The notes beneath the pieces were generated by a model, which saw only the letters and a list, made by a program, of their open reading frames with translations, was not told the DNA's origin and ran no database searches. Positions 605 to 55,112 of a stretch of 64,000 bases of DNA are shown piece by piece. Position 1 is the stretch's first letter. The number at the start of each line of letters is the position of its first letter. This DNA comes from Candidatus Raymondbacteria bacterium RIFOXYA2_FULL_49_16 (GTDB lineage Bacteria; Fibrobacterota; OXYB2-FULL-49-7; XYB2-FULL-49-35), in contig MFYT01000023.1 of NCBI GenBank assembly GCA_001789205.1, forward strand, positions 19,003 to 83,002, read 5' to 3'. The position numbers and the translations under genes were made by a program.

Positions 605-1953
605 AGCGGCTGCTCTTCCCGGCCATTGTCTGGTGCGTGTTTTTTTCCCTTGGCTGTATGAGGCCCATGCTTGAAAAACCCGTCAAGCGCATGGCCGAAT
701 TACCCCCGGTTCCCCCGCCAGTGCCAATGCAGGGCGACAGCGCAGCCAGCGCCCTTGCTGATACCACCGCGGTGATTGTCCCCGATACAGCCGCCCCTGA
801 AACGGGAATTGCCGTTTTCCAGGTTGAACGCAATTCAGTGCGCGTGCTTCTTGGACACGCGCAGCCGCATTTCAGGATCAAAGTCAGTGGCGCGTACGCG
901 GTTTTTTGTGAGAACAGGAATGCGGGCCGGGTTGAAGGCGATGTCAATGTTTCACGGTATGGCGCCCGGCTCTCACTGGGTCCCAGCCTCATGGAACTGG
1001 TCCCTCCTGTCGAGATTGTTTCCCTTGCCAATGAAGGACGGTTTTCCTACGATGGCAAGACGTGCAGGGGAAATTGCATCATCAGGCCCGACGCAGAGGG
1101 CAATGGGTTTCTTGTTATCAACGAGCTGCCCATGGAAGACTATCTTAAAGGGGTGGTGCCCTACGAAATCGGCAAACGGGACTCGTCGTGTTTTGAGGCG
1201 CTCAAGGTACAGGCAATCGCGGCCAGGACCTATTCCTATTCCCGCCTAAATCGTCACGCTGACGAGGGATTTGACGTGTATTGCGACCAGAGCGACCAAG
1301 TGTATAACGGCGTGGAAGGCGAATACGGCCTGGCAAGCGCGGCAATTGAACAGACCCGCGACATTGTTATGGTCCATGCTGATACGCTTATCCATGCCTA
1401 TTATTTTTCCACCAGCTCCGGGGCCACGGAAAACATCGAGGAAGTTTGGCCAGACAAGGGCATGAGGCCGTATCTCAGGTCTGTGTACGACTCGATTTAT
1501 AATACCCAAAGTCCGGTTTTTACCTGGACCGAAGAATGGAGCGGATACGCGCTTTCCCGGATACTCAATGCAAATATGCGTTCGATTGTCGCTGATTATC
1601 AGAAGGCCGATCTTCAAGACGTGTATGTTGAAGAATATACCAGCGCAGGCAGAGTGAAAAGCCTGGTCATTGTCGCGGGCGGACACACCTACCGGGTCTA
1701 CGGCGACAAGACGCGCTGGGCCCTGCGGCGGCCTGAGAAAGGCAACCCGATTCTCAGGAGCGCCTGGTTCAGGCTTTCGGTCGAAAAGCAGGGAGGACGC
1801 GTTGTCCATGTACGGGCAAATGGCAGAGGGTATGGCCACGGCGTTGGCATGTCGCAGATAGGCGCGCTTGGCATGGCCCAGGTCGGCAAAAGCTTTGAGG
1901 AGATCGCCCGGTTTTACTATACCGGCATTATCCTGGTGCGGGTACGAATTTAA
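601..1953 (+). CDS. SpoIID/LytB-domain protein (putative peptidoglycan-lytic/amidase-enhancer type), N-terminal signal/TM
   Basis: 450-aa ORF, hydrophobic N-terminus, central and C-terminal region resembles SpoIID/LytB family (YYFSTSSGATENIEEVW, GHGVGMSQ). 4-nt overlap with def stop. Confidence 0.55.
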   Translation: MKRLLFPAIVWCVFFSLGCMRPMLEKPVKRMAELPPVPPPVPMQGDSAASALADTTAVIVPDTAAPETGIAVFQVERNSVRVLLGHAQPHFRIKVSGAYAVFCENRNAGRVEGDVNVSRYGARLSLGPSLMELVPPVEIVSLANEGRFSYDGKTCRGNCIIRPDAEGNGFLVINELPMEDYLKGVVPYEIGKRDSSCFEALKVQAIAARTYSYSRLNRHADEGFDVYCDQSDQVYNGVEGEYGLASAAIEQTRDIVMVHADTLIHAYYFSTSSGATENIEEVWPDKGMRPYLRSVYDSIYNTQSPVFTWTEEWSGYALSRILNANMRSIVADYQKADLQDVYVEEYTSAGRVKSLVIVAGGHTYRVYGDKTRWALRRPEKGNPILRSAWFRLSVEKQGGRVVHVRANGRGYGHGVGMSQIGALGMAQVGKSFEEIARFYYTGIILVRVRI

Positions 1954-2462
1954 AATTTGGTTTTAAGCAACGCAACAGGGTGAAACAGCTGGGAAAGAAC
2001 ATTGAGCGTAAACGAATAAATGCCGGGTTCTTTTGACTCCCTCGATCCAGCCACATTTAATATCCGTACTTTGTTTTTCCTGATGAAAGTGACCAGTTTT
2101 TTCTCCGGCTGATCGTCCATTGCCGAGAGATGAAGGCATGGCCGTTCGTGGGCCACGGCAAAGGCGATCGTGTCTTTTGAGCCTCCGGTTGGTTTTTTCG
2201 CCAGGGTGAATATGACCGTGGCCTGGGCCAGAACGACGTTTTTTTCCGTGCGCAGCGAATAGTCGGCAAGCGCGGTTTCTTGGAGCCTGTAACGATTGCT
2301 GAGCGTCCCATCCTCGGCAAGCCTGCCTTTTGGACAATAGCCGGCATGCGGAAGGCCTGCTGCCAGGGCAAAGTCCAAAGCCGCGCGATCCGCGCCGGTC
2401 TGGCCTCCTGAGACAATGGTAAAAGATTGGTTATTAGTTCCTAAGACAGCCGCTGGTTTCAA
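1950..2462 (-). CDS. SLOG/LOG-like Rossmann protein of the 'putative molybdenum cofactor carrier' type
   Basis: N-terminal IVSGGQTGADRAALDFALAAGLPHAGYCPKGRLAEDG matches the conserved SGGQTG(V/A)DRAALD...CPKGR signature I associate with the MoCo-carrier/SLOG family. TTG start overlaps the HEPN stop (TTGA on the minus strand). Confidence 0.5.
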   Translation of the reverse strand: MKPAAVLGTNNQSFTIVSGGQTGADRAALDFALAAGLPHAGYCPKGRLAEDGTLSNRYRLQETALADYSLRTEKNVVLAQATVIFTLAKKPTGGSKDTIAFAVAHERPCLHLSAMDDQPEKKLVTFIRKNKVRILNVAGSRESKEPGIYSFTLNVLSQLFHPVALLKTKF

Positions 2463-2896
2463 AATATGTCACACGGGATCAATCGGCAGATTGTTTTTCT
2501 CACTCTTCGGGCAACTGAAACTGCTTGGCGCGTTTGCTTCAAGGTTATTGGCAAATAATCACCGGGGTATCTGCTGGTGACAGCATAATCGGTCATCTGT
2601 TCCTGTTCTTTGGGCGACATCCAGCCTTTATATTCTTTTGGCAACAACGCTGAGAGTACTGATAAATCGTGTGTTCTTGGAAAGTGGATTCCCAAATATA
2701 CCAGCGCAGCTTTCAGGGATTTTTCTATGCATTGCTGGGCATGAAAACAGATCGTATCGGTGGGAGCTTTTTTCCCAAGCTTTAATGTCTGGAGCGCTGT
2801 TGTCAAATCATTATCGGCTTTGGTCATCCATCCGGCTATTACGGCGGCGCGTTCATCGAGTCTTTGCATATAAGACCTTGCCCTCACGTTCTGCAA
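2459..2896 (-). CDS. HEPN domain protein (toxin-like partner of MNT)
   Basis: 145 aa. The ...HAQQCIEKSLKAALVYLGIHFPRTHDLSVL... stretch is a classical HEPN helix pair. Its start overlaps the upstream MNT ORF by about 44 nt. Confidence 0.7.
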   Translation of the reverse strand: MQNVRARSYMQRLDERAAVIAGWMTKADNDLTTALQTLKLGKKAPTDTICFHAQQCIEKSLKAALVYLGIHFPRTHDLSVLSALLPKEYKGWMSPKEQEQMTDYAVTSRYPGDYLPITLKQTRQAVSVARRVRKTICRLIPCDIF

Positions 2897-3146
2897 CCCT
2901 TGCTAGAGTGCCGGGGATTGACCTGCCTCTTAAGTATTCCTTTTGACCCATGACGATCACATCCTTTGCCACCTTAATGTCGTGCAACGCCATTCGGATT
3001 TCGACCTGTTTACGCCGCTTATCGACAGTATCGGGCATGATAACAAGGAGGTCGATGTCACTGTCTGGAAAAACGTGCCCTGTGGCGCACGAGCCGAAAA
3101 GAATTACCTTGTCCGGCCGGAAGGCGCGTTGTATGCGACTGGTCAT
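2853..3146 (-). CDS. minimal nucleotidyltransferase (MNT, Pol-beta superfamily)
   Basis: LFGSCATGHVFPDSDIDLLV is the GS...DxD nucleotidyltransferase motif. I chose the start at the internal Met (MTSRIQ...). The ORF is open up to 3347, so the real start could be further upstream. Confidence 0.65.
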   Translation of the reverse strand: MTSRIQRAFRPDKVILFGSCATGHVFPDSDIDLLVIMPDTVDKRRKQVEIRMALHDIKVAKDVIVMGQKEYLRGRSIPGTLARVAEREGKVLYAKTR

Positions 3147-3274
3147 AGTCTGGATTAATCTCCGGCGCCATGATGGACGAATAATGGAAGGAAGTACGGA
3201 CATGGGGAAAATATCATTCTTTTCTAGGATTAAAATCAAAGGAAGTTTTGGGAAGACTAGGGCAAAATGACATG

Positions 3275-3304
3275 TTGACAAAGACTGGAAAATATTGTTA
3301 TATA
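3275..3304 (+). promoter_or_regulatory. sigma70-like promoter candidate (TTGACA, 17-18 nt, TTATAT/TATATT)
   Basis: TTGACA at 3275-3280, followed by a 17-nt spacer with TG, then an AT-rich hexamer. No convincing downstream CDS. It may be an outward promoter of the decayed IS, or drive a small RNA. Confidence 0.2.
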
Positions 3305-3716
3305 TTAAACGATACATTTTGCTCTTTGACACCCCTGAGAAGCCCAAACAATGAATAAAGGTTCCTCGTTCAACAATGAATTCTGATGTATGGCCCGATA
3401 TTTCTCGTTCAGAACCCGTTTGGGAATGCTCTCATTCAAATGGTTATACGTTTTGAGAGCTTCCCAAATAAGTTGACCAGTAACCGGCTCTGCATGCACC
3501 CGGTTAATACGAGGTCACATTTTATTAAAAGAATTGAAGCTGTTCCGGGAATTTTTCCGGTCTTTTTTCTGATTGCTGTAGTATCACGATCATCCTTGTC
3601 CATTGTTTATCTGTCAGAATTATCATTCGGACTTCGCCCTCAGGTGGTGTTAAGACTTTTACCCTTTTCACATGAGTATTTACCTTTTCAGGTGAGCCGC
3701 AAGGCCGTGCATACAC
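3305..3716 (-). pseudogene. degraded IS5-family (DUF4096-type N-terminus) transposase remnant
   Basis: Two short minus-strand ORFs. The upstream one starts M..MIILTDKQWTRMIVIL, resembling the LTDEQWxRIxPLLP N-terminus of IS5/DUF4096 transposases. The downstream fragment has ...LFIVWASQGCQ, similar to the (V/I)LRTGCxW helix. Both are broken by stops. Confidence 0.25.
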
Positions 3717-3810
3717 GCTATTTTGAATAAAGACAAAGTCATCATTTATTAGGTCAGGGGAAGGGAAATAGAAGGCCCCCTGTGCTTTGTGTGCTACAGG
3801 GGGCCTATTT

Positions 3811-3885
3811 TGGAGCGAGAGACGGGACTTGAACCCGCGACAGCTACCTTGGCAAGGTAGAACTCTACCACTGAGTTACTCTCGC
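3811..3885 (-). tRNA. tRNA-Gly (anticodon GCC)
   Basis: Reverse complement reads GCGAGAGTAACTCAGTGGTAGAGTTCTACCTTGCCAAGGTAGCTGTCGCGGGTTCAAGTCCCGTCTCTCGCTCCA. It is 75 nt with a 7-bp acceptor stem, D-arm, anticodon stem CTACC/GGTAG with loop TTGCCAA, a GGTTCAAGTCC T-loop and a CCA end. Confidence 0.85.
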
Positions 3886-3905
3886 AAATCTTTTACGCAA
3901 GCCTA

Positions 3906-6900
3906 TTAAAATAATAAATTGAACACACCGCCGCCATAATAAGTTTTGAAATTCTCTCCGCCGCTTTCGGCCGTATCGGTCCCGTATTCGTAGCCGCCTT
4001 TCACCGAGATGGACATCATGATGGTAAGACCCACCTTGATTTCGCTTTCTACGCCGTATACTTTCAGCACTTCATTTACCTTGTTGAATGCGCCAGTCCA
4101 GACGCCATCAGCGTTGTTTTTCTCTTCCTTGTAGTCAGTGTTCTGGTTTGAAAAGTAACCCTTGAGGTTCAGCGTGAGTTTTTGGGGAATCACCTTGACT
4201 TCGAAGCGGTCTTCAAGGCGAAAGAGCTGCTTGGCCTCGTCCTTGTATTTTTTTGTCCTTATCTGATAGCTGGTCTTTAGCTTGTTGCCAATACGGCTTT
4301 TAAAAAGCTTGAGCGCGAAGTCGAATTTTGTCTTGATCTGGTGGCCGTCATTTTTTTCCCATTGGAGCGTGTCAGCGTAGGAGAGCGCAGGGTCAAAGCG
4401 GTTCATGTCGTTAATGAGGATGACGCCGCCGTCGAGTTTGAGACGCATGGATGTGAGCACTTCGCTTGAATAGGAGGGTATGTAGACCAAAGCGCCGCCA
4501 AAGGTCATGCGGCCTTCGGCATCGGTGTATTCAGTGGCATTTACGGTCTCTTCTGAACCATCCACCGATATCTTCATGTCTTTGCTCTTGGCGTCCCGTT
4601 TGAGCGCAGGCACCCATTCGTAATAGTAGGAGAAGTTTGGTTCAAACGAAAAGGGGCCAATGGGCATCTTTATATCAAGGCCTCCCTTCAGCTTGTTCTC
4701 GACTGGCTGGGAAAGAAAGCTGAGCGAAGGATCGTTTACCACTGAGTCTCCAGCCACGGAATCAGCGACCATGATTGGGTCTTCGCCGAGAAAATCCGGT
4801 TTGATGCTGGTCTCTTCTTTTGCCGCAGCTTCCCAGTCAAAGGCCGTATTCAGATCAATGCTTTTCGTGAGCCCGCTAAGTATATTGACATCAAAAGATT
4901 TTGATCCATTGAACCGGGCTTTGTTCAGGTTGCCCACCTGGGGCTTTATCGACGGGTTGCCGCCCGTATAGAAGTCGTGCTGCGCGCGGATGTATTCGAC
5001 CGTGGCGTCGAACCCGCTCAGGTTGAAGTTGACGCCAATCAGCCCCGCGGTCATCTGCGTCAGGTTAAAGTTGTGGTGGATAAGCGTGTCTTTTGAATAG
5101 GCGAACGACGACCCATCGCCCGAATCAACGTCAGTGCTCAGGGTGTCGGCGTAGCCAATATCCACTTCCGCGAATGCGGAAAGATTGTCGCGGATCTGCA
5201 TTGTGGCGTTGATGCCGCTATTGTACGATTGGAGTTTAGGGTCGGCGCCGTACAGTTCCGTTGAGTCGAGACTGACACCGGGATAGAGAATGGGATTGTT
5301 TACATGGCGTGTTGTCAGGAAATGGGCGCCCACGGAGAGATCGCGGGAAACATTGCTTTTGACAGAGGCCAGGCCCAGCCATTCCTGGCGGATGGGTGTG
5401 GTATTGCTGTCGAGCATGTCGGGCTTGAGGCCTTTGGGATAGGGAATGGTGGATTGGCCGCCGGAAATGGACATGTCGAGCGAACGCCCCTGTTCGAGGG
5501 TTGATGTTTTTTCGTACTTGAGACCCCGGATTTGGCGCGAGGACACGGAGATTTCAGACTGATCTTCGGAAAAATCGCCCAAGACAATTTCGTGGCCCGG
5601 CAGCGTGGTAGTGAGATTGATGACCTCGAATTTTTGGATATTGCGGTACGCCTCAAGGTTGCGCAGATGGTCGTCACCCGTGGTAGAACCCATTTTGTTG
5701 TAGTTGCCGTAACCGTTGATAGTGAGGTCGCTCTCACGGTCGCCCACCTTGCTTTGCAGGTAGAGTGAAAGCTCGGGCCTGAATCCGGGAATATACGTGG
5801 TTTGGTGGGGAAGGGCCGAATCCGCGATGTTGGCGTGGACCGATTCGTTCAGGTCGTTGACTGCTCGGTAGGTGAGACCAAGCGAGACCTGGCCCAACAG
5901 ACCCATGCGGGCGGTGAATGATTCGCCGCGCGAAGGCGCGGAGAGAAAATCGCCCTTGAAGCCCACGGTGTCCCTGAATTCTTTTTCCCGCACCTTCACT
6001 GCGGTGATTTTCTGCGGTTCGGGCATCAGCTTGGCCACCTCTTCGGGAGTGACAACGCGCAGGTCTTCGACGTTTCGCTTGATCATGAAGAGTCTGTTGC
6101 TTTTGATTTCCTGATCAGTGAGTACGCCGACCCGGTTTTTAAGCACCCAGATATCTTCGAGTTTTACCTGGGCCCGTTTGTCCGTAATAATGCCGAAGTC
6201 GTTGTCCTCAATGCGAGTACGAGACATGTTCAAGGTTGAAAAAGGATGGCAAACCACGCCGTGGGTAATATTGTGTATCAATCCGCTGTCGACACTGACC
6301 TTTGAGCCGCGGTCAACGTTGAGACCCACGATATGGCCTTTGCCTAACTGCGTATACCGGACCTGCACGTCGGACTGCAGGGCGTAAATGCAGCTGATTG
6401 AATTGTTTTGGAACGAGCAATTGGCAATGGTAGCATTGCCGTTGTCGACATGGATGCCGAAATTGCTGTTTGAGATGGTGCACCAAGTGAAATAGGAACG
6501 CTGGTTTCCCCGGATGTAGATGCGATCCCAATCCCACGCCTTTGCGTCTTTTTTCGCTGATTTGAACACAATGGGCGCTCCCTCAACGCCTTCGGCCATG
6601 ATCTGGCCGTAGACCACGATGGTTGAGTAGTCGCCCCCCACGAGCACTGTGACACCCTTCTCAATGGTGAGGGTCTTGTTCGCGGGGACCACCACGTTGC
6701 CCACCAGGAGATAGGGACTCTTGTCCGTTGATAGTGTGCCGTCTATCTCGTCCTGCATGATGACCGTGGCCTTTGCGGCCTCTTCGCTTTCAGCTAGCTC
6801 CTTGGCGTCGATGGCCTCGGCTTCGAGAGAGAGCGGTTCGAGCTGCAGGACAAAATCCTTGACCCATTTGTCCGAAACAAGCATCACATCGCCGGGAAGT

Positions 6901-32285: not shown

Positions 32286-35200
32286 TTGTTATGGCATCAA
32301 AAAATTATGGGAAGGCAGGTTGGAGTGAAAACAAAACACTGCTGTTTGTTTCTTTTATTGATATTCACGACTGTTTCTTTTGCGGTCACGACGCGATATG
32401 TCTCTGTCGGCGCATGCACTGATTATACCAGCGGCAGCGCCTCTGTCGATTCCGGTTCTCTCGTGGTCACTGGTACAAGCACAGTCTGGCTCGACAGCAA
32501 CCGGGGCTGCGGAGACAGCATCATAATAAACAGCACCGGCTACACCGTCGATTCCGTGACCTCAAACACGCGGATCGTACTCACCTCTGCCGCCACCGCC
32601 ACATATAGCGGTTCCACATACAGCGTCAAACGCAAGAAATCCTCATTCTCCTCATGGGAAAGCCAGAACAAGAACCTTGTTACCGCAGACCAAAACGAGG
32701 TGGCGATATTTTACAATGACGGCTCTGAGTTCACTGCACAGGACATAAACGGATGGACAACGGATTCGCTGCATAGGATAACCATGACCGCGAACGCCTC
32801 CAACCAGCATAACGGAATAGAGGTATCGGGCGCAGTAATCAACTGCCAGGGCGGGGTCTGGAATCTATATATAGGCTGCACAACGCTTGAGAATCTGGAA
32901 GTTAAGAATTCCGGCGGCTACGGATTATATCTTGCTGGCGTGAACAATGTTGTGCGCAACTGCCTGTTTCATGGCGGCAGCACGCATGGCATTCACGTGT
33001 ATTACAACGGTTCAAAAGACAGTATTTATAACAACATCGTGCATGGCTTTGATTCCGCGGGTATCGACATTTCCACCAACCAGTGGAACCTTGTTGCCAA
33101 TAATACGGTGTATGGCTGCCATAAGGGCATACGCAGCAGCCATGGAAATTACTCATATAACAACATGTACGTTGTGAACAATCTCTGCGCTGGCAATGGC
33201 GCGGACTACTGGGAAGTGCCCGGATCAGTCGGCTTCAATTCCAACGACAGCAACAATATTTCCAGCGACAGTTCTCTTGCTTTGGTCGGCGCAGGGCCGC
33301 ATTGCAAAAACAATGTCACCCTTTCTCAGATAGCATTTGCGGACACGGCAACCGCAACAAGAGACCTGCATATAACATCAACAAGCATTGCCCGCGATTC
33401 AGGCGCTAACCTGAGCAGTTATTTTTCAATTGATATTGACGACAGCACGCGCAGCGGTTCCTGGGACATTGGCGCTGATGAGTATTTTGCGACAACACCT
33501 GTTTATAAAATACGCTTTGTCTCCATCGGCTCCCGAGCCGATTACGCTTCCGGCAGCGTCTCAGTCGATTCCGGCTCCCTCGTCGCGACCGGTACAAGCA
33601 CAGCCTGGCTCGACAGCAACCGTGGCTGCGGCGACAGCATCATAATAAACGGCGCTGGCCATACTATCGACTCAGTGACTTCCAACACTCGTATTGTTCT
33701 TGCGGAAAGAGCAAATGCCGCGTATTCAGGAAACAGTTATTCCATTAAGCGCAAATATGCCACATTACAGGCATGGGCGAGCACGCACAGGGACCTTGTT
33801 ACGGCCAACCAGAGCGAAATGGCGTTGCTGTATAACGACGGAGCGGAGTTTGTAGTCAGCTGGTTAAGCCACATAGACGATGGGTGGAATACGGATTCGC
33901 TGCATAGGCTGACCATATCCGCGGATGCCAGGAACCGGCACACGGGTATCGCCGGTACCGGTGCAGTGATAAACTGCCAGGGCAGCGTCTGGAATCTTTA
34001 TAAAGGCTGGACAACGCTTGAGAACCTAGAAGTCAAAAATTCCAGCACCTACGGGTTATATCTTGCTGGTATGAATAATGTTGTGCGCAACTGCCTGTTT
34101 CACGGCGGGGACAACCGGGGCATCCACGTAGCGTATACGGGAGTAAACGACAGTGTTTACAACAATATTATATACGATTTTGATTCCGCAGGCATAGACA
34201 TTGCCACAAACCAATGGAACCTTGTCGCAAACAATACTGTGTACGGTTGTTTTAAAGGCATACGAAGCAGCCACGAAAACTATGTTTATAACAACATGCA
34301 TGTGGTCAACAATATTGCCATGGGAAATGTTTATGATTTCTGGGAGCTTGCCGGTTCCGTGGGATTTGACGGAAACGACACCAATAATATCTGCGGCGAC
34401 GCCAGCCTGAACACAATCGGCATTGGGTCCAAGAACCATTATAACGCAAGCTTTACCAGCATTGCTTTCATTGATACGGCAATTGCAAGTTGCGATCTGC
34501 ATATTCACAGCTACAGCGTGGCAAAGAGCGCTGGTGCGGATTTAAGCGGATATTTTACCACAGACATAGATAATGTGACCCGTACCAGCCCCTGGGACAT
34601 TGGCGCTGATGAATATACCGGGCCTGGGGAAATAGTGCTTTCAGACCATCCGGCAGGCCAGGAACCGAATGCATTCACAGGCAAAGGGTCAGAGACAAAT
34701 GCCGAACTGTTTGCGTTCAAATTGTATTCCGTGGATAACCCGGCGATAACACGCCTTGTCTTTGACATTTCCAATATAAATGGCCTGACCAATGCGGACT
34801 GGGCGGGTGTTGAGCTTGTGGTTGATGCTGACAGCAATGGGAGCATTGGTACAGGGGAGAACACGACAGTCGGCGGTGCCGGGGTAGTGAATCAGGATTC
34901 AGGGATAATCACCTTTTCCACCAGTTTTTCCGTGAACGGGACAAAATATTATATCTTGCGGGCTGATTTTGCTTCGTTGTCGCACAATGATGGGGTTACG
35001 ATTTCATTTAATTCAGATAGTGTTATAACAACGGCTGATATTTCTGGCAGTGTTTCAGCTGCGCAACACCATGAATGGAATCCGTCAGGCATTTCGAAAC
35101 GGACCACGAGATACAACGACAAAGCGCAGGTCGATTACCTGATTATTACCAAGGATGAACCCCGAATTCTTAATGAATTTAAGCGCCTTGCGACCTATAA

Positions 35201-38200
35201 ACAGGCCAAGGGCATGAAAGTTAAGATAGTGACAGCGGACAGCATCAAGACCATATTCGAAGGTTCTGACCTCCAGGAAAAGATCCGAAAATATATTCAG
35301 TATGCAAAGAAAGAATATAAGGTCACCTGGGTGCTTCTTGGCGGTGATTATGCGATAATTCCTCCGCGTTACCTCTATTCCAGCATGAACGGCGGCAGCG
35401 CCATTTTGAGTGACATGTATTATGCGTGCCTTGAATCTGATTTTAACCTGGACAAGGACAATCATATCGGCGAAGTCGCGGATAATGCGGACATTTTTCC
35501 GGATGTTGTGCTTGGCAGGCTACCCTGTTCCGACTGGAACGAGGCTCGGAAAATGATTGATAAAAGCATAGAATATGAATATAAAGGCCTTGCTGGAGCA
35601 GGGGAGCGTAAAATACTGCTCTCCGGTATTGACATGCTGGGGAAAAGATACAGCCCGCAGGACTCGGCATATATCGATGATGGAACTTATTATAACCATA
35701 GGGTACTGAAAGATATAATCAAAGCCGGGTTTGACGGAGATTTTACCGAAATATTTGAAGATTCGATCACCCCGGCAGACTCGGTCATCGACGATTCCAT
35801 AAAAGTCCCATTGAATACATTCATCGATTCTTTGTTCGGGAACAGTACCGCCTCGCCTGCAAACCTGTGGATCCATTATGGCCATGGTGCGGAAGAGGCT
35901 GTTATCTACAATAACCACAGCCTTCTTACAACGCATCTTCTCAAAAAAGAAGTCAATGCAAAATATCAGAAAAACGCCGGACATGCCCTGATTATTGGTT
36001 GCGGTACCCTGACGCCGAATTCGGCTTCCCTTGCAAAGAAAATGTTGACCTATTATGAAGGCGCAAACACCTATTTTGCCGCATCGAACTGGGATTATCC
36101 TTCAACCTCTCTGAATATCCACAAAGCATACATGCAGGCTTTGTTTGAAGACACGGCCATGTCCGCGGGTCTTGCAGCAACTCTGGCAAAACTCAATGAG
36201 GAAGCTGCATCTGGTGCGGAGCAGTTTGATTTTTCAAAACGTTGGGTATTATTGGCGTACAATTTCCTTGGCGATCCTGAACTGCCGCTCTGGAAAGACA
36301 CGCTGTCTGAATCAACAAGGCTGAATGTTCCGGGCATTGGTTCTCTGGTCATTGTTGAGGGCGCACAGATTTGCACTCTTGATGTTCAAACAGGGTCTGT
36401 ATCGGCCGATACAAACACACGCGTCTGCATATTCCAGGACAACTCGAACATAACGCGCGCCAGGGTGAACGCAGACGGTAAGGCAATACTGAACTTTACG
36501 GCAAAGAAGAGCGCATACGAGCCGGTTTTTATTGGCGTAATGCACGATAAGTTTGCGCCAGTAATGTACCGCATAGACAGTGTTTCAAACGTATCGGGCC
36601 CCAGTTTGTTTTTAATAAAAGAATTGACCAGAGATTCAAGCAAAACAAGTTCAGACACTCTCCATTTTTCATTTGAAATCAGGAATGAGGGTGGGTCAGA
36701 TGCGTATGGAGTTGGCGCTATCATTTCATTGACAGACCCTGCGGATTCGGGTTTTGTAGCCATTCTTACGACCATAGACAGCACGGATTCCATTATCGTG
36801 TCCGACCAGGCTACGATGGCTTTTTCCATCAAACTCAACAGGGCCAAACAGACACACCGTATTATTACTTTTAATACAACGGTTGGCTGTAATGGGGGTC
36901 ATGCATACAGCGGAAGATTTGCAATAGATATTGGCGAGAAACGGCTTGTACTGCAGAAAGGTACAACCTCGAAAAGCGGAAATGAATATACTTTGCAATA
37001 CACAGTTAAAAATAAAGGTACGCATGCCATTACTGGCGATAGCTTACGCCTTATTGCAACAGAAGGTGACAGCGCAATTGTGGACATATCCCCGGCAATG
37101 CGGACAGTAACGACCATTCAACCGGATTCACAAAGGACCACAAATACATTTATCGTAACTGTATATCCGGATTGGCCATACCAGACATCACTTTTGAAAC
37201 TTGTAATGGCTTATGATGGTATTCGCGAGACGTTGACGGTAGACCTGGAAGCCCCGGATACAATACCGTCATTTGTGGCAGTGCCCTATGGGCCGGGCAA
37301 AATATACCTTGAATGGGCAAAACCAGCGGATAATGATATTGCCGGATATTATCTGTATCGCAAACACGCAGACAGCGCATCATTCAGGCAGATCAACGGC
37401 CTCATAGGAAATTCCTTTTATGTTGATGAAGATACCGCAGCAATCAAGAGCAACAACGGTTTTGTTTATTACGTAAAGGCGTTTGACCGTTCCATGCATG
37501 TTTCAGATAGTATTTACGACACGGTTAAAGTAGAACTTGCCATGAAATCAGGGTTCCCCATGGACCTTGAAAACGGTCATGGCGGTGCGCCAAAGATAGC
37601 GGACCTTGATGGCGACGGTGATCAGGAATTCATGTTTCCCATGGCTTCAAACGAAGTCAAGGCGTATCATCATGATGGGCAGGAATATTACCAGAAATAT
37701 GAGAACGACGGATATGCGTTCAGTTTCTCTTCAGGTCAATATGCTATGCATCATCAGCTGGGTATAGGCGATGTTAATGGAGACGGCACGCAGGACATGG
37801 TTATTGCCGCTGGTGAGAGAGTGTATGTGTATAGGGGTGGAAACTACCCGGACACTGTGCAGATATTCTCTCAGCATACGGATTGGGCAGGGGAGAACCA
37901 GGATTTTAATATTACCGCGCCGATTGTGTATGATTTTGACAATGACAACAAGAGCGAAATTGTAACCGCTTCATTCAATGGCAAGGAATATGTTTTATGG
38001 ATGGATGGCAGTACTTTGAAGATAGATAGTTGCAATACGGTGTATGGTTTCGACAGGCCATTCAGTCTTGGCGATGTTTATGGTGATTCCAAAAAAGAAA
38101 TAGTGGGTTATTCTTCCACATGGGGTGGGCCCTATGTTCATTTCTTCCATTACGCTGACACTGGATTATGCGACCACGATTCACTGAAATGGAAGAGGGA

Positions 38201-54188: not shown

Positions 54189-55094
54189 ATGGCATATAAA
54201 AGATTAAAATTACTTATTATATGGGAAGTCTTATTGTTGGGTCAAATATATGGATCGACCTATATTACTATTTCGTCAGATAAAAAAGATTACTTGGTTT
54301 ACGACCCTATTTATTTAACAATGGAATTTGACACCTTAAAAGCGCCAGCTAATTTTATTTTTGGTAGTCTTGAAAATTCGAACGTTAATATGGTTTTAGT
54401 AATAGAAACTCCAAGTGGGATTCTTAGTTACACACCGCCAGAAACAGACATTACCATCGATAGAGAAGCATTTCGTATAGGTAGAATATATACTACTGAA
54501 TACGCTACAATCGTATTGCATAGAGGAATGGCAATAACGTCACTACCAGGGAAATACTTGTTATTCATTAGGCAAAAAACACAAAATAAAACAATATCCA
54601 ATAAAATTCAATTAGTCATATCAGAGCCAGTGTTAAATAATGATACAAAGGCAATGAGAATAATCAAAAACAAACCAGAAGCATATGCATTGTTTATATA
54701 TCTTGAAGGAGGAGAACATATTAAAGAAGGTTTTGCAATTCTTAAAGACCTTTGCGAAACAAATTCATCATATACAGAAATTGCCAAAACTGTATTAATG
54801 CTGAATTATAGCGAACGGTATTATGATTGGAAACAAAATAAAATTGAACGAGAAATAGATTTTAATAAAGTAGAGAAATATTTAAATGAAGTCGATATTG
54901 ACAAAATGCCTGAATATTTAAAATTAAGAATGTGTAGTAAAATATTACGGAACACCAATCGTGGTCGAATTAATAACTCTCTTTTTAATAAGCTGAATAC
55001 AATAAAGAATAATGTGACTGGTAGTAAACGAGTTCATAAAACACGCTTATATAATTTTTTAAAGATGAGTGACGGTTTAATAAAGAAGAACTGA
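54189..55094 (+). CDS. hypothetical secreted protein (low GC)
   Basis: Signal-like LKLLIIWEVLLLGQIYG. No recognisable domain. AT-rich. Confidence 0.35.
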   Translation: MAYKRLKLLIIWEVLLLGQIYGSTYITISSDKKDYLVYDPIYLTMEFDTLKAPANFIFGSLENSNVNMVLVIETPSGILSYTPPETDITIDREAFRIGRIYTTEYATIVLHRGMAITSLPGKYLLFIRQKTQNKTISNKIQLVISEPVLNNDTKAMRIIKNKPEAYALFIYLEGGEHIKEGFAILKDLCETNSSYTEIAKTVLMLNYSERYYDWKQNKIEREIDFNKVEKYLNEVDIDKMPEYLKLRMCSKILRNTNRGRINNSLFNKLNTIKNNVTGSKRVHKTRLYNFLKMSDGLIKKN

Positions 55095-55112
55095 ATTAAA
55101 AAGGATTATAAT

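Follow-up and report, generated by a model that had tools for sequence, protein, structure and literature searches.

A canonical MNT-HEPN module adjoining a cpYpsA-family SLOG gene in Candidatus Raymondbacteria

Described MNT-HEPN modules and the pair in Candidatus Raymondbacteria

MNT-HEPN modules of the COG1708/COG2250 type are predicted toxin-antitoxin systems (Makarova 2009, PMC2701414; Anantharaman 2013, PMC3710099). They were found inserted in unrelated operons, such as the lysine operon of T. thermophilus HB8 and an acetyltransferase cluster of D. radiodurans (PMC2701414). In some conflict systems, SLOG domains sense nucleotides (PMC9503650; PMC6459960). In SLOG defence systems based on nucleotide signals, Thoeris ThsA among them (PMC7272460, PMC9503650), the SLOG domain is fused to, or conserved beside, an effector and a signal generator in many lineages.

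The locus studied here lies in a stretch of 64,000 nucleotides, hereafter the window, from a MAG of Candidatus Raymondbacteria, a groundwater bacterium. Three consecutive open reading frames of the minus strand span positions 1950-3347. The list of reading frames and Pfam bear out the original prediction that these are three real genes, and its domain names MNT, HEPN and SLOG are right since searches with PF01909, PF05168 and PF12694 all match. The genes belong to a block of ~1.9 kb bounded by tRNA-Gly and by the housekeeping genes def and spoIID, a setting for which the predicted 'defence island' is an overstatement.

The minimal nucleotidyltransferase (MNT) gene occupies positions 2853-3203 (minus strand, 116 aa). 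Its start codon is most likely the ATG at 3203 and not position 3347, judging from the alignment to homologues of 104-132 aa, most of them of 106-125 aa. The protein matches PF18765 (Polbeta, E=9.2e-11) and PF01909 (NTP_transf_2, E=1.5e-10) with ~42 bits and carries the Pol-beta motif LFGS...DSDID (LFGSCATG...DSDIDLLV). The HEPN gene (2459-2869, minus strand) starts at ATG 2869, giving a 136-aa product that matches all homologues. It overlaps MNT by 17 nt; the ~44 nt first proposed are valid only for a mechanical TTG start at 2896. The HEPN protein matches PF05168 (E=1.7e-21, 77 bits, cutoff 22) and is identical over 136 aa to a named Candidatus Raymondbacteria protein. No R-x(4-6)-H motif occurs in its 136-aa sequence, and RYPGDY stands where the canonical Rx4-6H motif would be. 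Among the HEPN homologues of alignment A2, H43, H67 and Y101 are invariant and Y105 is nearly so.

The pair shares with COG1708/COG2250-type modules (PMC2701414, PMC3710099) the position of MNT 5' of HEPN, the overlap of the two genes, the size of both proteins (<150 aa), the GS...DxD motif of MNT, the PF05168 domain of HEPN, a D in place of the motif H and further conserved H residues. Nothing essential differs; here, an unrelated third gene has its start within the stop codon of HEPN. MNT is also found directly upstream of HEPN in 65 of the 66 loci of its closest homologues. MNT and HEPN are a canonical mobile two-gene module of this type, of the HEPN-T clade. Characterised HepT/MntA pairs belong to the same superfamilies and have the same gene order, although their HEPN proteins are of the DUF86/PF01934 type with Rx4-6H whereas the window HEPN matches PF05168 only, and no characterised HepT or MntA was among the PDB matches at E<=0.1. 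A conserved tyrosine also lies beside the HEPN motif arginine in the window protein and is a candidate for nucleotidylation, and the same logic, i.e. neutralisation of HEPN by the nucleotidyltransferase, likely applies here. By analogy with characterised HEPN/MNT toxin-antitoxin pairs, HEPN would be the growth-inhibiting, RNA-targeting partner, which MNT would neutralise by binding and/or nucleotidylating the conserved tyrosine, presumably Y101 or Y105 in RYPGDY.

The cpYpsA-family gene and its linkage to the pair

The third gene (1950-2462, minus strand) codes for a protein of 170 aa that matches PF12694 with E=7.5e-51 (172.1 bits, cutoff 26.2) over positions 1-144 of the 145-position profile. 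Its fold is fixed because a solved homologue exists, the 'putative molybdenum carrier protein' of PDB entry 3IMK (E=5.2e-32). The predicted SGGQTGADRAALD...CPKGR signature is present, with the SGGQTGADR and CPKGR motifs conserved, and since all family-invariant residues (35/35 columns) are kept, the gene is not a dead passenger. Besides cpYpsA, Pfam gives only sub-threshold matches to DNA_processg_A and YAcAr, and PF03641, the model for LOG or a Chlamydomonas-type MoCo carrier, is absent from the matches at E<=0.1. Of the initial description as a LOG-like 'putative molybdenum-carrier'/SLOG protein, the SLOG superfamily and PF12694 are thus retained while LOG proper is abandoned: judged on its sequence, the protein is a member of the cpYpsA clade of the SLOG superfamily.

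The cpYpsA family (circularly permuted YpsA) comprises 6,733 clusters at 50% identity and its genes are present on 32 IMG/VR viral contigs. Fusion partners are diverse, and HEPN and NTase are absent among the top 25. cpYpsA is a stand-alone Rossmann-like nucleotide-binding or -processing protein of many phyla and phage contigs, with no fixed partner; a literature search on PF12694 or 'putative molybdenum carrier' retrieved no papers. The window copy resembles the family in its full-length match, its complete set of invariant residues and its typical size. It differs by an N-terminal extension of 12-15 residues and by a TTG start overlapping the upstream gene, unlike its homologues, which are mostly solitary genes with their own start. 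This TTG (2462-2460) overlaps the HEPN stop codon TGA (2461-2459) as TTGA, as had been noticed originally. It is the sole canonical start: an in-frame TGA precedes it by two codons, and the sequence between it and the conserved core lacks ATG, GTG and TTG. At the other end, the cpYpsA stop overlaps that of the convergent gene spoIID (TTAA, 1950-1953). Co-transcription of the three genes is plausible because no promoter or terminator beyond chance level parts them, and they are probably co-transcribed. Of the original prediction, the tight chaining of the genes stands, while the three-component system that it proposes finds no support.

About 170 related loci were compared overall. The cpYpsA survey comprised 115 loci, i.e. 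80 from genomes, 32 from viral contigs and three from metagenome contigs with DNA; genome loci were searched by phmmer and custom HMMs (E<=1) within 4 kb, and viral loci within 3 kb. Neither HEPN nor MNT was detected near cpYpsA at any of them (0/80, 0/32 and 0/3, respectively), which contradicts the proposal that the SLOG gene is hard-wired to HEPN-MNT. With 115 of several thousand cpYpsA loci sampled, the 95% upper bound of the linkage frequency is ~2.6%. The gene tables of the closest cpYpsA relatives (55-60% identity) contain neither HEPN nor MNT. Conversely, cpYpsA was found at none of the 80 loci of the closest HEPN homologues, 53 of which had at least 450 bp downstream. The neighbours of cpYpsA are heterogeneous, the commonest Pfam family occurring at 3/74 loci upstream and 4/75 downstream in neighbour tables that cover the top 25 families. 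RlaP, a Pol-beta NTase, lies upstream of cpYpsA at 2/74 loci; two Nostoc loci considered as RlaP carriers were rejected, ABC ATPases being encoded there. The genes downstream of homologous HEPN pairs are likewise assorted (Macro, DeoC twice, LpxD, DUF499), and 4-nt stop/start overlaps also occur there, TTGA into DUF499 at locus L122 and ATGA into DeoC at locus L135. In a compact genome, an overlap of stop and start codons is not in itself proof that genes are functionally coupled.

We therefore favor, with a probability of about three in four, a canonical MNT-HEPN module adjoining an independent cpYpsA gene, their linkage being a lineage-specific accident of genome packing and not a three-component system. 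In this Raymondbacteria lineage, the space between tRNA-Gly and cpYpsA is taken up by the mobile pair and a cas2-like remnant, which leaves cpYpsA without intergenic space of its own. cpYpsA would then most likely depend on read-through of transcription starting at the MNT-HEPN promoter, with translation from the TTG overlapping the HEPN stop. As a counterpoint, the TTGA overlap, the sole start and the lack of an intergenic promoter tie cpYpsA expression to the pair, which could be exploited functionally.

Surroundings and origin of the block

Upstream of MNT lies an AT-rich stretch (3204-3590, ~40% GC). Part of it (3528-3590) is shared with the 3' end, outside the Pfam match, of a cas2-like reading frame that is open from 3815 down to 3528. 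Pfam identified no family in the reading frames of 3204-3590. The MNT-HEPN(-cpYpsA) transcript presumably has its promoter in this stretch; a promoter scan remained at chance level, with no convincing sigma-70 site in it. The segment next to the tRNA gene, formerly read as a decayed IS, is a 5'-truncated cas2-like pseudogene (3591-3752, minus strand) that matches CRISPR_Cas2 (PF09827) with E=1.7e-9 (38.2 bits, cutoff 23.8) over positions 22-74 of the 74-position profile. The IS remnant was rejected as Pfam found no transposase in any stop-to-stop segment of 3190-3815. No CRISPR array is present within the window. The neighbouring tRNA, recognised in the original prediction as tRNA-Gly, is tRNA-Gly(GCC) (3811-3885, minus strand; ARAGORN; Rfam RF00005, 66.5 bits), and Rfam detected no ncRNA besides it. 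A hairpin at 3773-3806 (minus strand, -25.6 kcal/mol, z = -4.9, 0/200 shuffles as stable) followed by a U-rich tract is likely the intrinsic terminator of tRNA-Gly, parting its transcript from the downstream block.

These surroundings bear on a variant of the preferred reading that differs only in origin. The whole 1.9-kb block (cas2 remnant, MNT, HEPN and cpYpsA) might be a decayed integrated mobile element carrying cpYpsA as independent cargo, instead of a resident cpYpsA joined by the pair. The adjoining tRNA, the truncated cas2-like gene inside the block and the cpYpsA genes on viral contigs are consistent with such an origin, as is the frequent location of the closest cpYpsA relatives amid nuclease, Abi and immunity-like genes. 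Composition points the same way, GC3 being 0.46 for HEPN, 0.55 for MNT, 0.55 for cpYpsA and 0.38 for the spacer whereas the def, spoIID and beta-helix genes on either side have 0.63-0.66; cpYpsA, whose own GC3 is below the flanks too, may have come in with the pair. The dip is real, but it is weak evidence because GC3 ranges from 0.24 to 0.73 across the window, and composition was discarded as proof of foreign origin. Moreover, neither an integrase nor an att-like direct repeat of the tRNA-Gly 3' end was found, and no related genome devoid of the block was retrieved. Presence/absence polymorphism of the pair was likewise not observed: the contigs that encode the same Def and HEPN proteins show 100% identity from 1801 to 4000, gene calling being their sole difference. 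As an account of the origin of the block, a decayed element is less likely than not.

Role of the pair and of the third gene

The preferred reading takes the pair as a toxin-antitoxin module. An older view, modelled on kanamycin nucleotidyltransferase, regards HEPN as a substrate-binding subunit (PMC3710099). MNT and HEPN would then be the catalytic and substrate-binding parts of a two-part nucleotidyltransferase, with cpYpsA as an unrelated neighbour. The missing canonical RNase motif of the window HEPN agrees with this view, and so does the nature of its structural relatives of the PF05168 family in the PDB (1WOL, 1UFB, 1O3U), which are structural-genomics proteins without demonstrated toxin activity. 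In addition, no NCBIfam model, HepT included, matched HEPN at E<=0.1, and MntA (NF047752) scored 33.8 bits on MNT, below its cutoff of 60. However, HEPN-T members with D for H keep another conserved H as a possible alternative active site (PMC3710099), and H43 and H67 are both invariant here. A toxin-antitoxin role of such pairs is also favored by their MNT-first order, by the small size of the proteins, by their mobile and patchy occurrence and by a toxicity screen at genome scale (PMC3710099, PMC2701414), and the two-part enzyme is unlikely.

Least probable is a true three-component system, in which cpYpsA would sense or process a nucleotide such as AMP or oligo-AMP on HEPN, or else a signal derived from NAD/ADP-ribose, and tune the neutralisation of the HEPN toxin by MNT, with translational coupling setting the stoichiometry. 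In its most specific form, this would be a young lineage-specific variant where cpYpsA, captured into the MNT-HEPN operon and coupled to HEPN, modulates the nucleotidylation state of the toxin by sensing or removing nucleotides. The TTGA overlap with no alternative start, the lack of intergenic signals beyond chance and the intact cpYpsA motifs are in its favor. Sensing and processing roles in nucleotide-centred conflict systems are known or predicted for SLOG domains (PMC6459960, PMC9503650), and a Macro domain gene that follows one HEPN homologue after 54 nt, together with 2H phosphoesterase domains fused to some cpYpsA proteins, hints at ADP-ribose and RNA-end chemistry near these families. 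The resemblance to the Thoeris ThsA-like systems lies in the SLOG fold and in the original idea of a sensor beside an effector, whereas the linkage here is not conserved. PADLOC returned weak superfamily-level matches only (ShosA, E=8e-4; PsyrA, E=0.012).

The lack of recurrence at cpYpsA and HEPN loci alike, and the similar 4-nt overlaps that join homologous HEPNs to unrelated downstream genes, argue against such a system. The trio is moreover confined to one near-clonal population, whose contigs have at least 99.4% DNA identity to the window. Within it, contig L207 shares 3,684 bp with the window and departs from it there in one respect only, a 23-bp deletion (2180-2202) that shifts the cpYpsA frame and takes out its invariant GGS motif. 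MNT and HEPN are intact in this contig, so the components are not retained together. In contig L001, cpYpsA carries the substitutions R26S, at an invariant residue, and K45N. A three-component system is, on these grounds, very improbable; if true, it would be the first case of a HEPN-MNT module equipped with a third component dedicated to nucleotide binding, and the large cpYpsA family would gain a function. Some minor value lies in any case in the biochemically uncharacterised PF05168-type HEPN/MNT pairs and cpYpsA family, and in the cpYpsA-deletion variant, which offers any test of this locus a control that already exists in nature.

Identity and expression of the three genes

The minus strand of the window carries three successive open reading frames between 1950 and 3347, and the locus belongs to kinds already known, an MNT-HEPN pair and a cpYpsA gene. 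The genes and domain calls of the original prediction held, whereas its overlap length, its IS remnant and its three-component reading did not. The domain calls were borne out by Pfam matches to PF18765 / PF01909 for MNT (listed at 2853-3347, minus strand, E about 1e-10), to PF05168 for HEPN (listed at 2459-2896, minus strand, E=1.7e-21) and to PF12694 for the SLOG-type cpYpsA (1950-2462, minus strand, E=7.5e-51, 172 bits for a cutoff of 26.2, profile positions 1-144 of 145). The latter had been called SLOG/LOG-like; the LOG part of this label was dropped, PF03641 giving no match at E<=0.1.

The overlap between MNT and HEPN, first put at 44 nt, measures 17 nt, because translation of HEPN from the ATG at 2869 gives a 136-aa product that exactly matches a protein recorded in a Candidatus Raymondbacteria MAG and aligns at the same length as all its homologues. 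Alignment with MNT homologues, mostly of 106-125 aa, indicated that MNT begins with the ATG at 3203, which yields a protein of 116 aa. The HEPN stop (TGA, 2461-2459) and the cpYpsA start (TTG, 2462-2460) overlap as TTGA, just as predicted. This TTG is the sole canonical start of cpYpsA, since an in-frame TGA lies two codons 5' of it and no ATG, GTG or TTG occurs between it and the conserved SGGQTG core. The 3' end of cpYpsA meets the convergent spoIID gene, the two stop codons overlapping as TTAA.

Sites resembling promoters or terminators are as frequent across 1700-4000 as chance alone would produce, and the scan of this region for a separate promoter or terminator between the three genes detected none. 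Together with the gene boundaries and the TTGA overlap, this makes co-transcription of cpYpsA with the pair, and coupled initiation of its translation, likely from the sequence. The cpYpsA gene would then merely be expressed from the transcript of the MNT-HEPN pair.

Gene partners and population variants

A three-component system combining MNT, HEPN and the SLOG protein was contradicted, on a criterion set by the original prediction itself, by the neighbourhoods of cpYpsA homologues. Eighty cpYpsA loci were taken from different genomes (Verrucomicrobiota, Planctomycetota, Desulfobacterota, cyanobacteria and others) and searched within 4 kb of cpYpsA with phmmer, using the window proteins, and with HMMs built from 120 homologues each. 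HEPN or MNT was found in none of the 80, even at E<=1, and both were also absent beside cpYpsA on 32 viral contigs. The Pfam scan of the immediate neighbours returned 71 families upstream (n=74) and 95 downstream (n=75), no single one of which occurred in more than 4 loci.

Gene tables of the closest cpYpsA relatives listed AbiTii, Endonuclease_NS, HNH, TPR or nothing, and never HEPN or MNT. These relatives sit among nuclease and immunity-like genes, and some cpYpsA genes may be linked to polymorphic-toxin or immunity loci. The contig of one relative, P0002 (JGI 3300067032), carries a second cpYpsA copy 2.3 kb from the first, with AbiTii, a faint GIY-YIG and a weak Rap1a match. In loci L204 and L205, an Endonuclease_NS gene and a 66-aa ORF are directly upstream of cpYpsA, a position occupied in L206 by a gene for an HNH protein.

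The reciprocal survey covered 80 metagenomic loci with the closest HEPN homologues (39-63% identity). MNT is directly upstream in 65 of the 66 loci having room upstream, and cpYpsA occurs in 0 of the 80, 53 of which extend at least 450 bp downstream. Same-strand genes located at most 60 nt 3' of the homologous HEPN code for a Macro domain protein, two DeoC-like aldolases (loci L110 and L135), LpxD, a DUF499 ATPase and three proteins without Pfam match. In two loci the HEPN stop overlaps the following gene by the same 4 nt as in the window, as TTGA into a 924-aa DUF499 ATPase gene in L122 (3420-6194) and as ATGA into the DeoC-like gene of L135 (3384-4076). Such overlaps with unrelated genes thus amount to about 4% for this HEPN subfamily. 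The Macro domain, like SLOG, is tied to ADP-ribose chemistry; its gene, a single case (L102:805-1386, plus strand, PF01661, E=2.9e-44), lies 54 nt 3' of the homologous MNT-HEPN pair. That MNT-HEPN pairs have recently inserted into unrelated operons was already documented (Makarova et al., PMC2701414).

Every contig bearing the three genes is essentially one sequence, 100% identical over 2,200 bp outside two variants. The first one, L001 (JGI 3300009296), differs by 4 SNPs over 2,121 bp. Those at window-equivalent positions 2328 and 2387 cause the cpYpsA changes R26S and K45N, which affect the invariant R26 of the GADR motif and K45 of the CPKGR motif and may be due either to relaxed constraint or to sequencing errors at low coverage. 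The only changes in the pair, HEPN L4V and MNT T115S, both stem from one SNP in the gene overlap. The second variant, L207 (JGI 3300025051), is identical over 3,684 bp save for a 23-bp deletion (window-equivalent 2180-2202) that frameshifts cpYpsA and eliminates its invariant GGS motif, with MNT and HEPN intact. The two variants, too few for statistics, argue that cpYpsA is dispensable alongside the pair and hence not an antitoxin-like component. Functional effects of the cpYpsA capture in this lineage are very improbable.

Predicted activities of the pair and of cpYpsA

The HEPN protein belongs to the HEPN-T/PF05168 clade: it carries RYPGDY in place of the Rx4-6H motif, and H43 and H67 are invariant in the alignment. 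This fits the description of HEPN-T in which 'D replaces conserved H... a conserved H elsewhere' (Anantharaman et al., PMC3710099). [quoted passage not shown] The pair is best viewed as a putative toxin-antitoxin-like module, in which MNT would neutralise HEPN by binding it and/or by nucleotidylating a conserved tyrosine. Alternatively, MNT and HEPN could form a two-subunit nucleotidyltransferase instead of a toxin and its antitoxin.

The cpYpsA protein matches the solved structure 3IMK, a 'putative molybdenum carrier protein' (E=5.2e-32), and retains 35/35 columns invariant among 29 family members. It is a predicted stand-alone SLOG-fold nucleotide-binding protein. It belongs to a very large family, with more than 7,800 clusters passing at 90% identity, a lower bound as only 8,000 candidates were scored, and with 6,733 clusters at 50% identity in an exhaustive search. 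Once near-identical copies, P0001 (98%) and the deletion variant P0362, are set aside, no relative exceeds about 60% identity. Domains fused to 64 longer members include YAcAr, DUF6794, receiver, GNAT, FolB, S24 peptidase, 2H phosphoesterase and RNase H, among others; the 25 listed include no HEPN or NTase. This repertoire is nucleic-acid and nucleotide oriented. Individual architectures in P0426, P0465 and other long members of set A5 comprise RNase H, HNH plus S24 peptidase, 2H phosphoesterase, receiver, GNAT, FolB, deaminase and DUF6794.

Genomic surroundings

The three genes are flanked on one side by def and spoIID, identified by Pfam, and on the other by a tRNA-Gly(GCC) gene (3811-3885). 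A strong hairpin 3' of the tRNA gene (-25.6 kcal/mol, z=-4.9) is likely its terminator. Directly after it, the supposed IS remnant turned out to be a 5'-truncated cas2-like pseudogene (3528-3815, homologous part 3591-3752, minus strand) matching PF09827 over profile positions 22-74 of 74 (E=1.7e-9, 38.2 bits). Neither a CRISPR array nor other cas genes were seen in the window, and no att-like repeat was found.

The spacer 3204-3810 has 40% GC. GC3 is 0.46 for HEPN and 0.55 for both MNT and cpYpsA, compared to 0.63-0.66 in flanking genes, but this dip is weak evidence of foreign origin because GC3 ranges widely across the window. Two gene blocks (42063-45795 and 54189-58117) have a very low GC3 of 0.24-0.36, the mean over the window being 0.53, and are probably islands gained by horizontal transfer. 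Just outside the window on its left side, at some 6-8 kb past def, the source contig (L198:1-2400) encodes an ISAZ013-type DDE transposase together with a toxin-antitoxin pair of the Gp49/HTH (HigBA-like) type, so that mobile and toxin-antitoxin genes lie dispersed in this region with housekeeping genes between them. A single ORF of 3,255 aa occupies 32286-42053 on the plus strand, and the related contig L199 encodes a giant protein like it, 3,248 aa long, with Beta_helix, Peptidase_C25 and FG-GAP matches.
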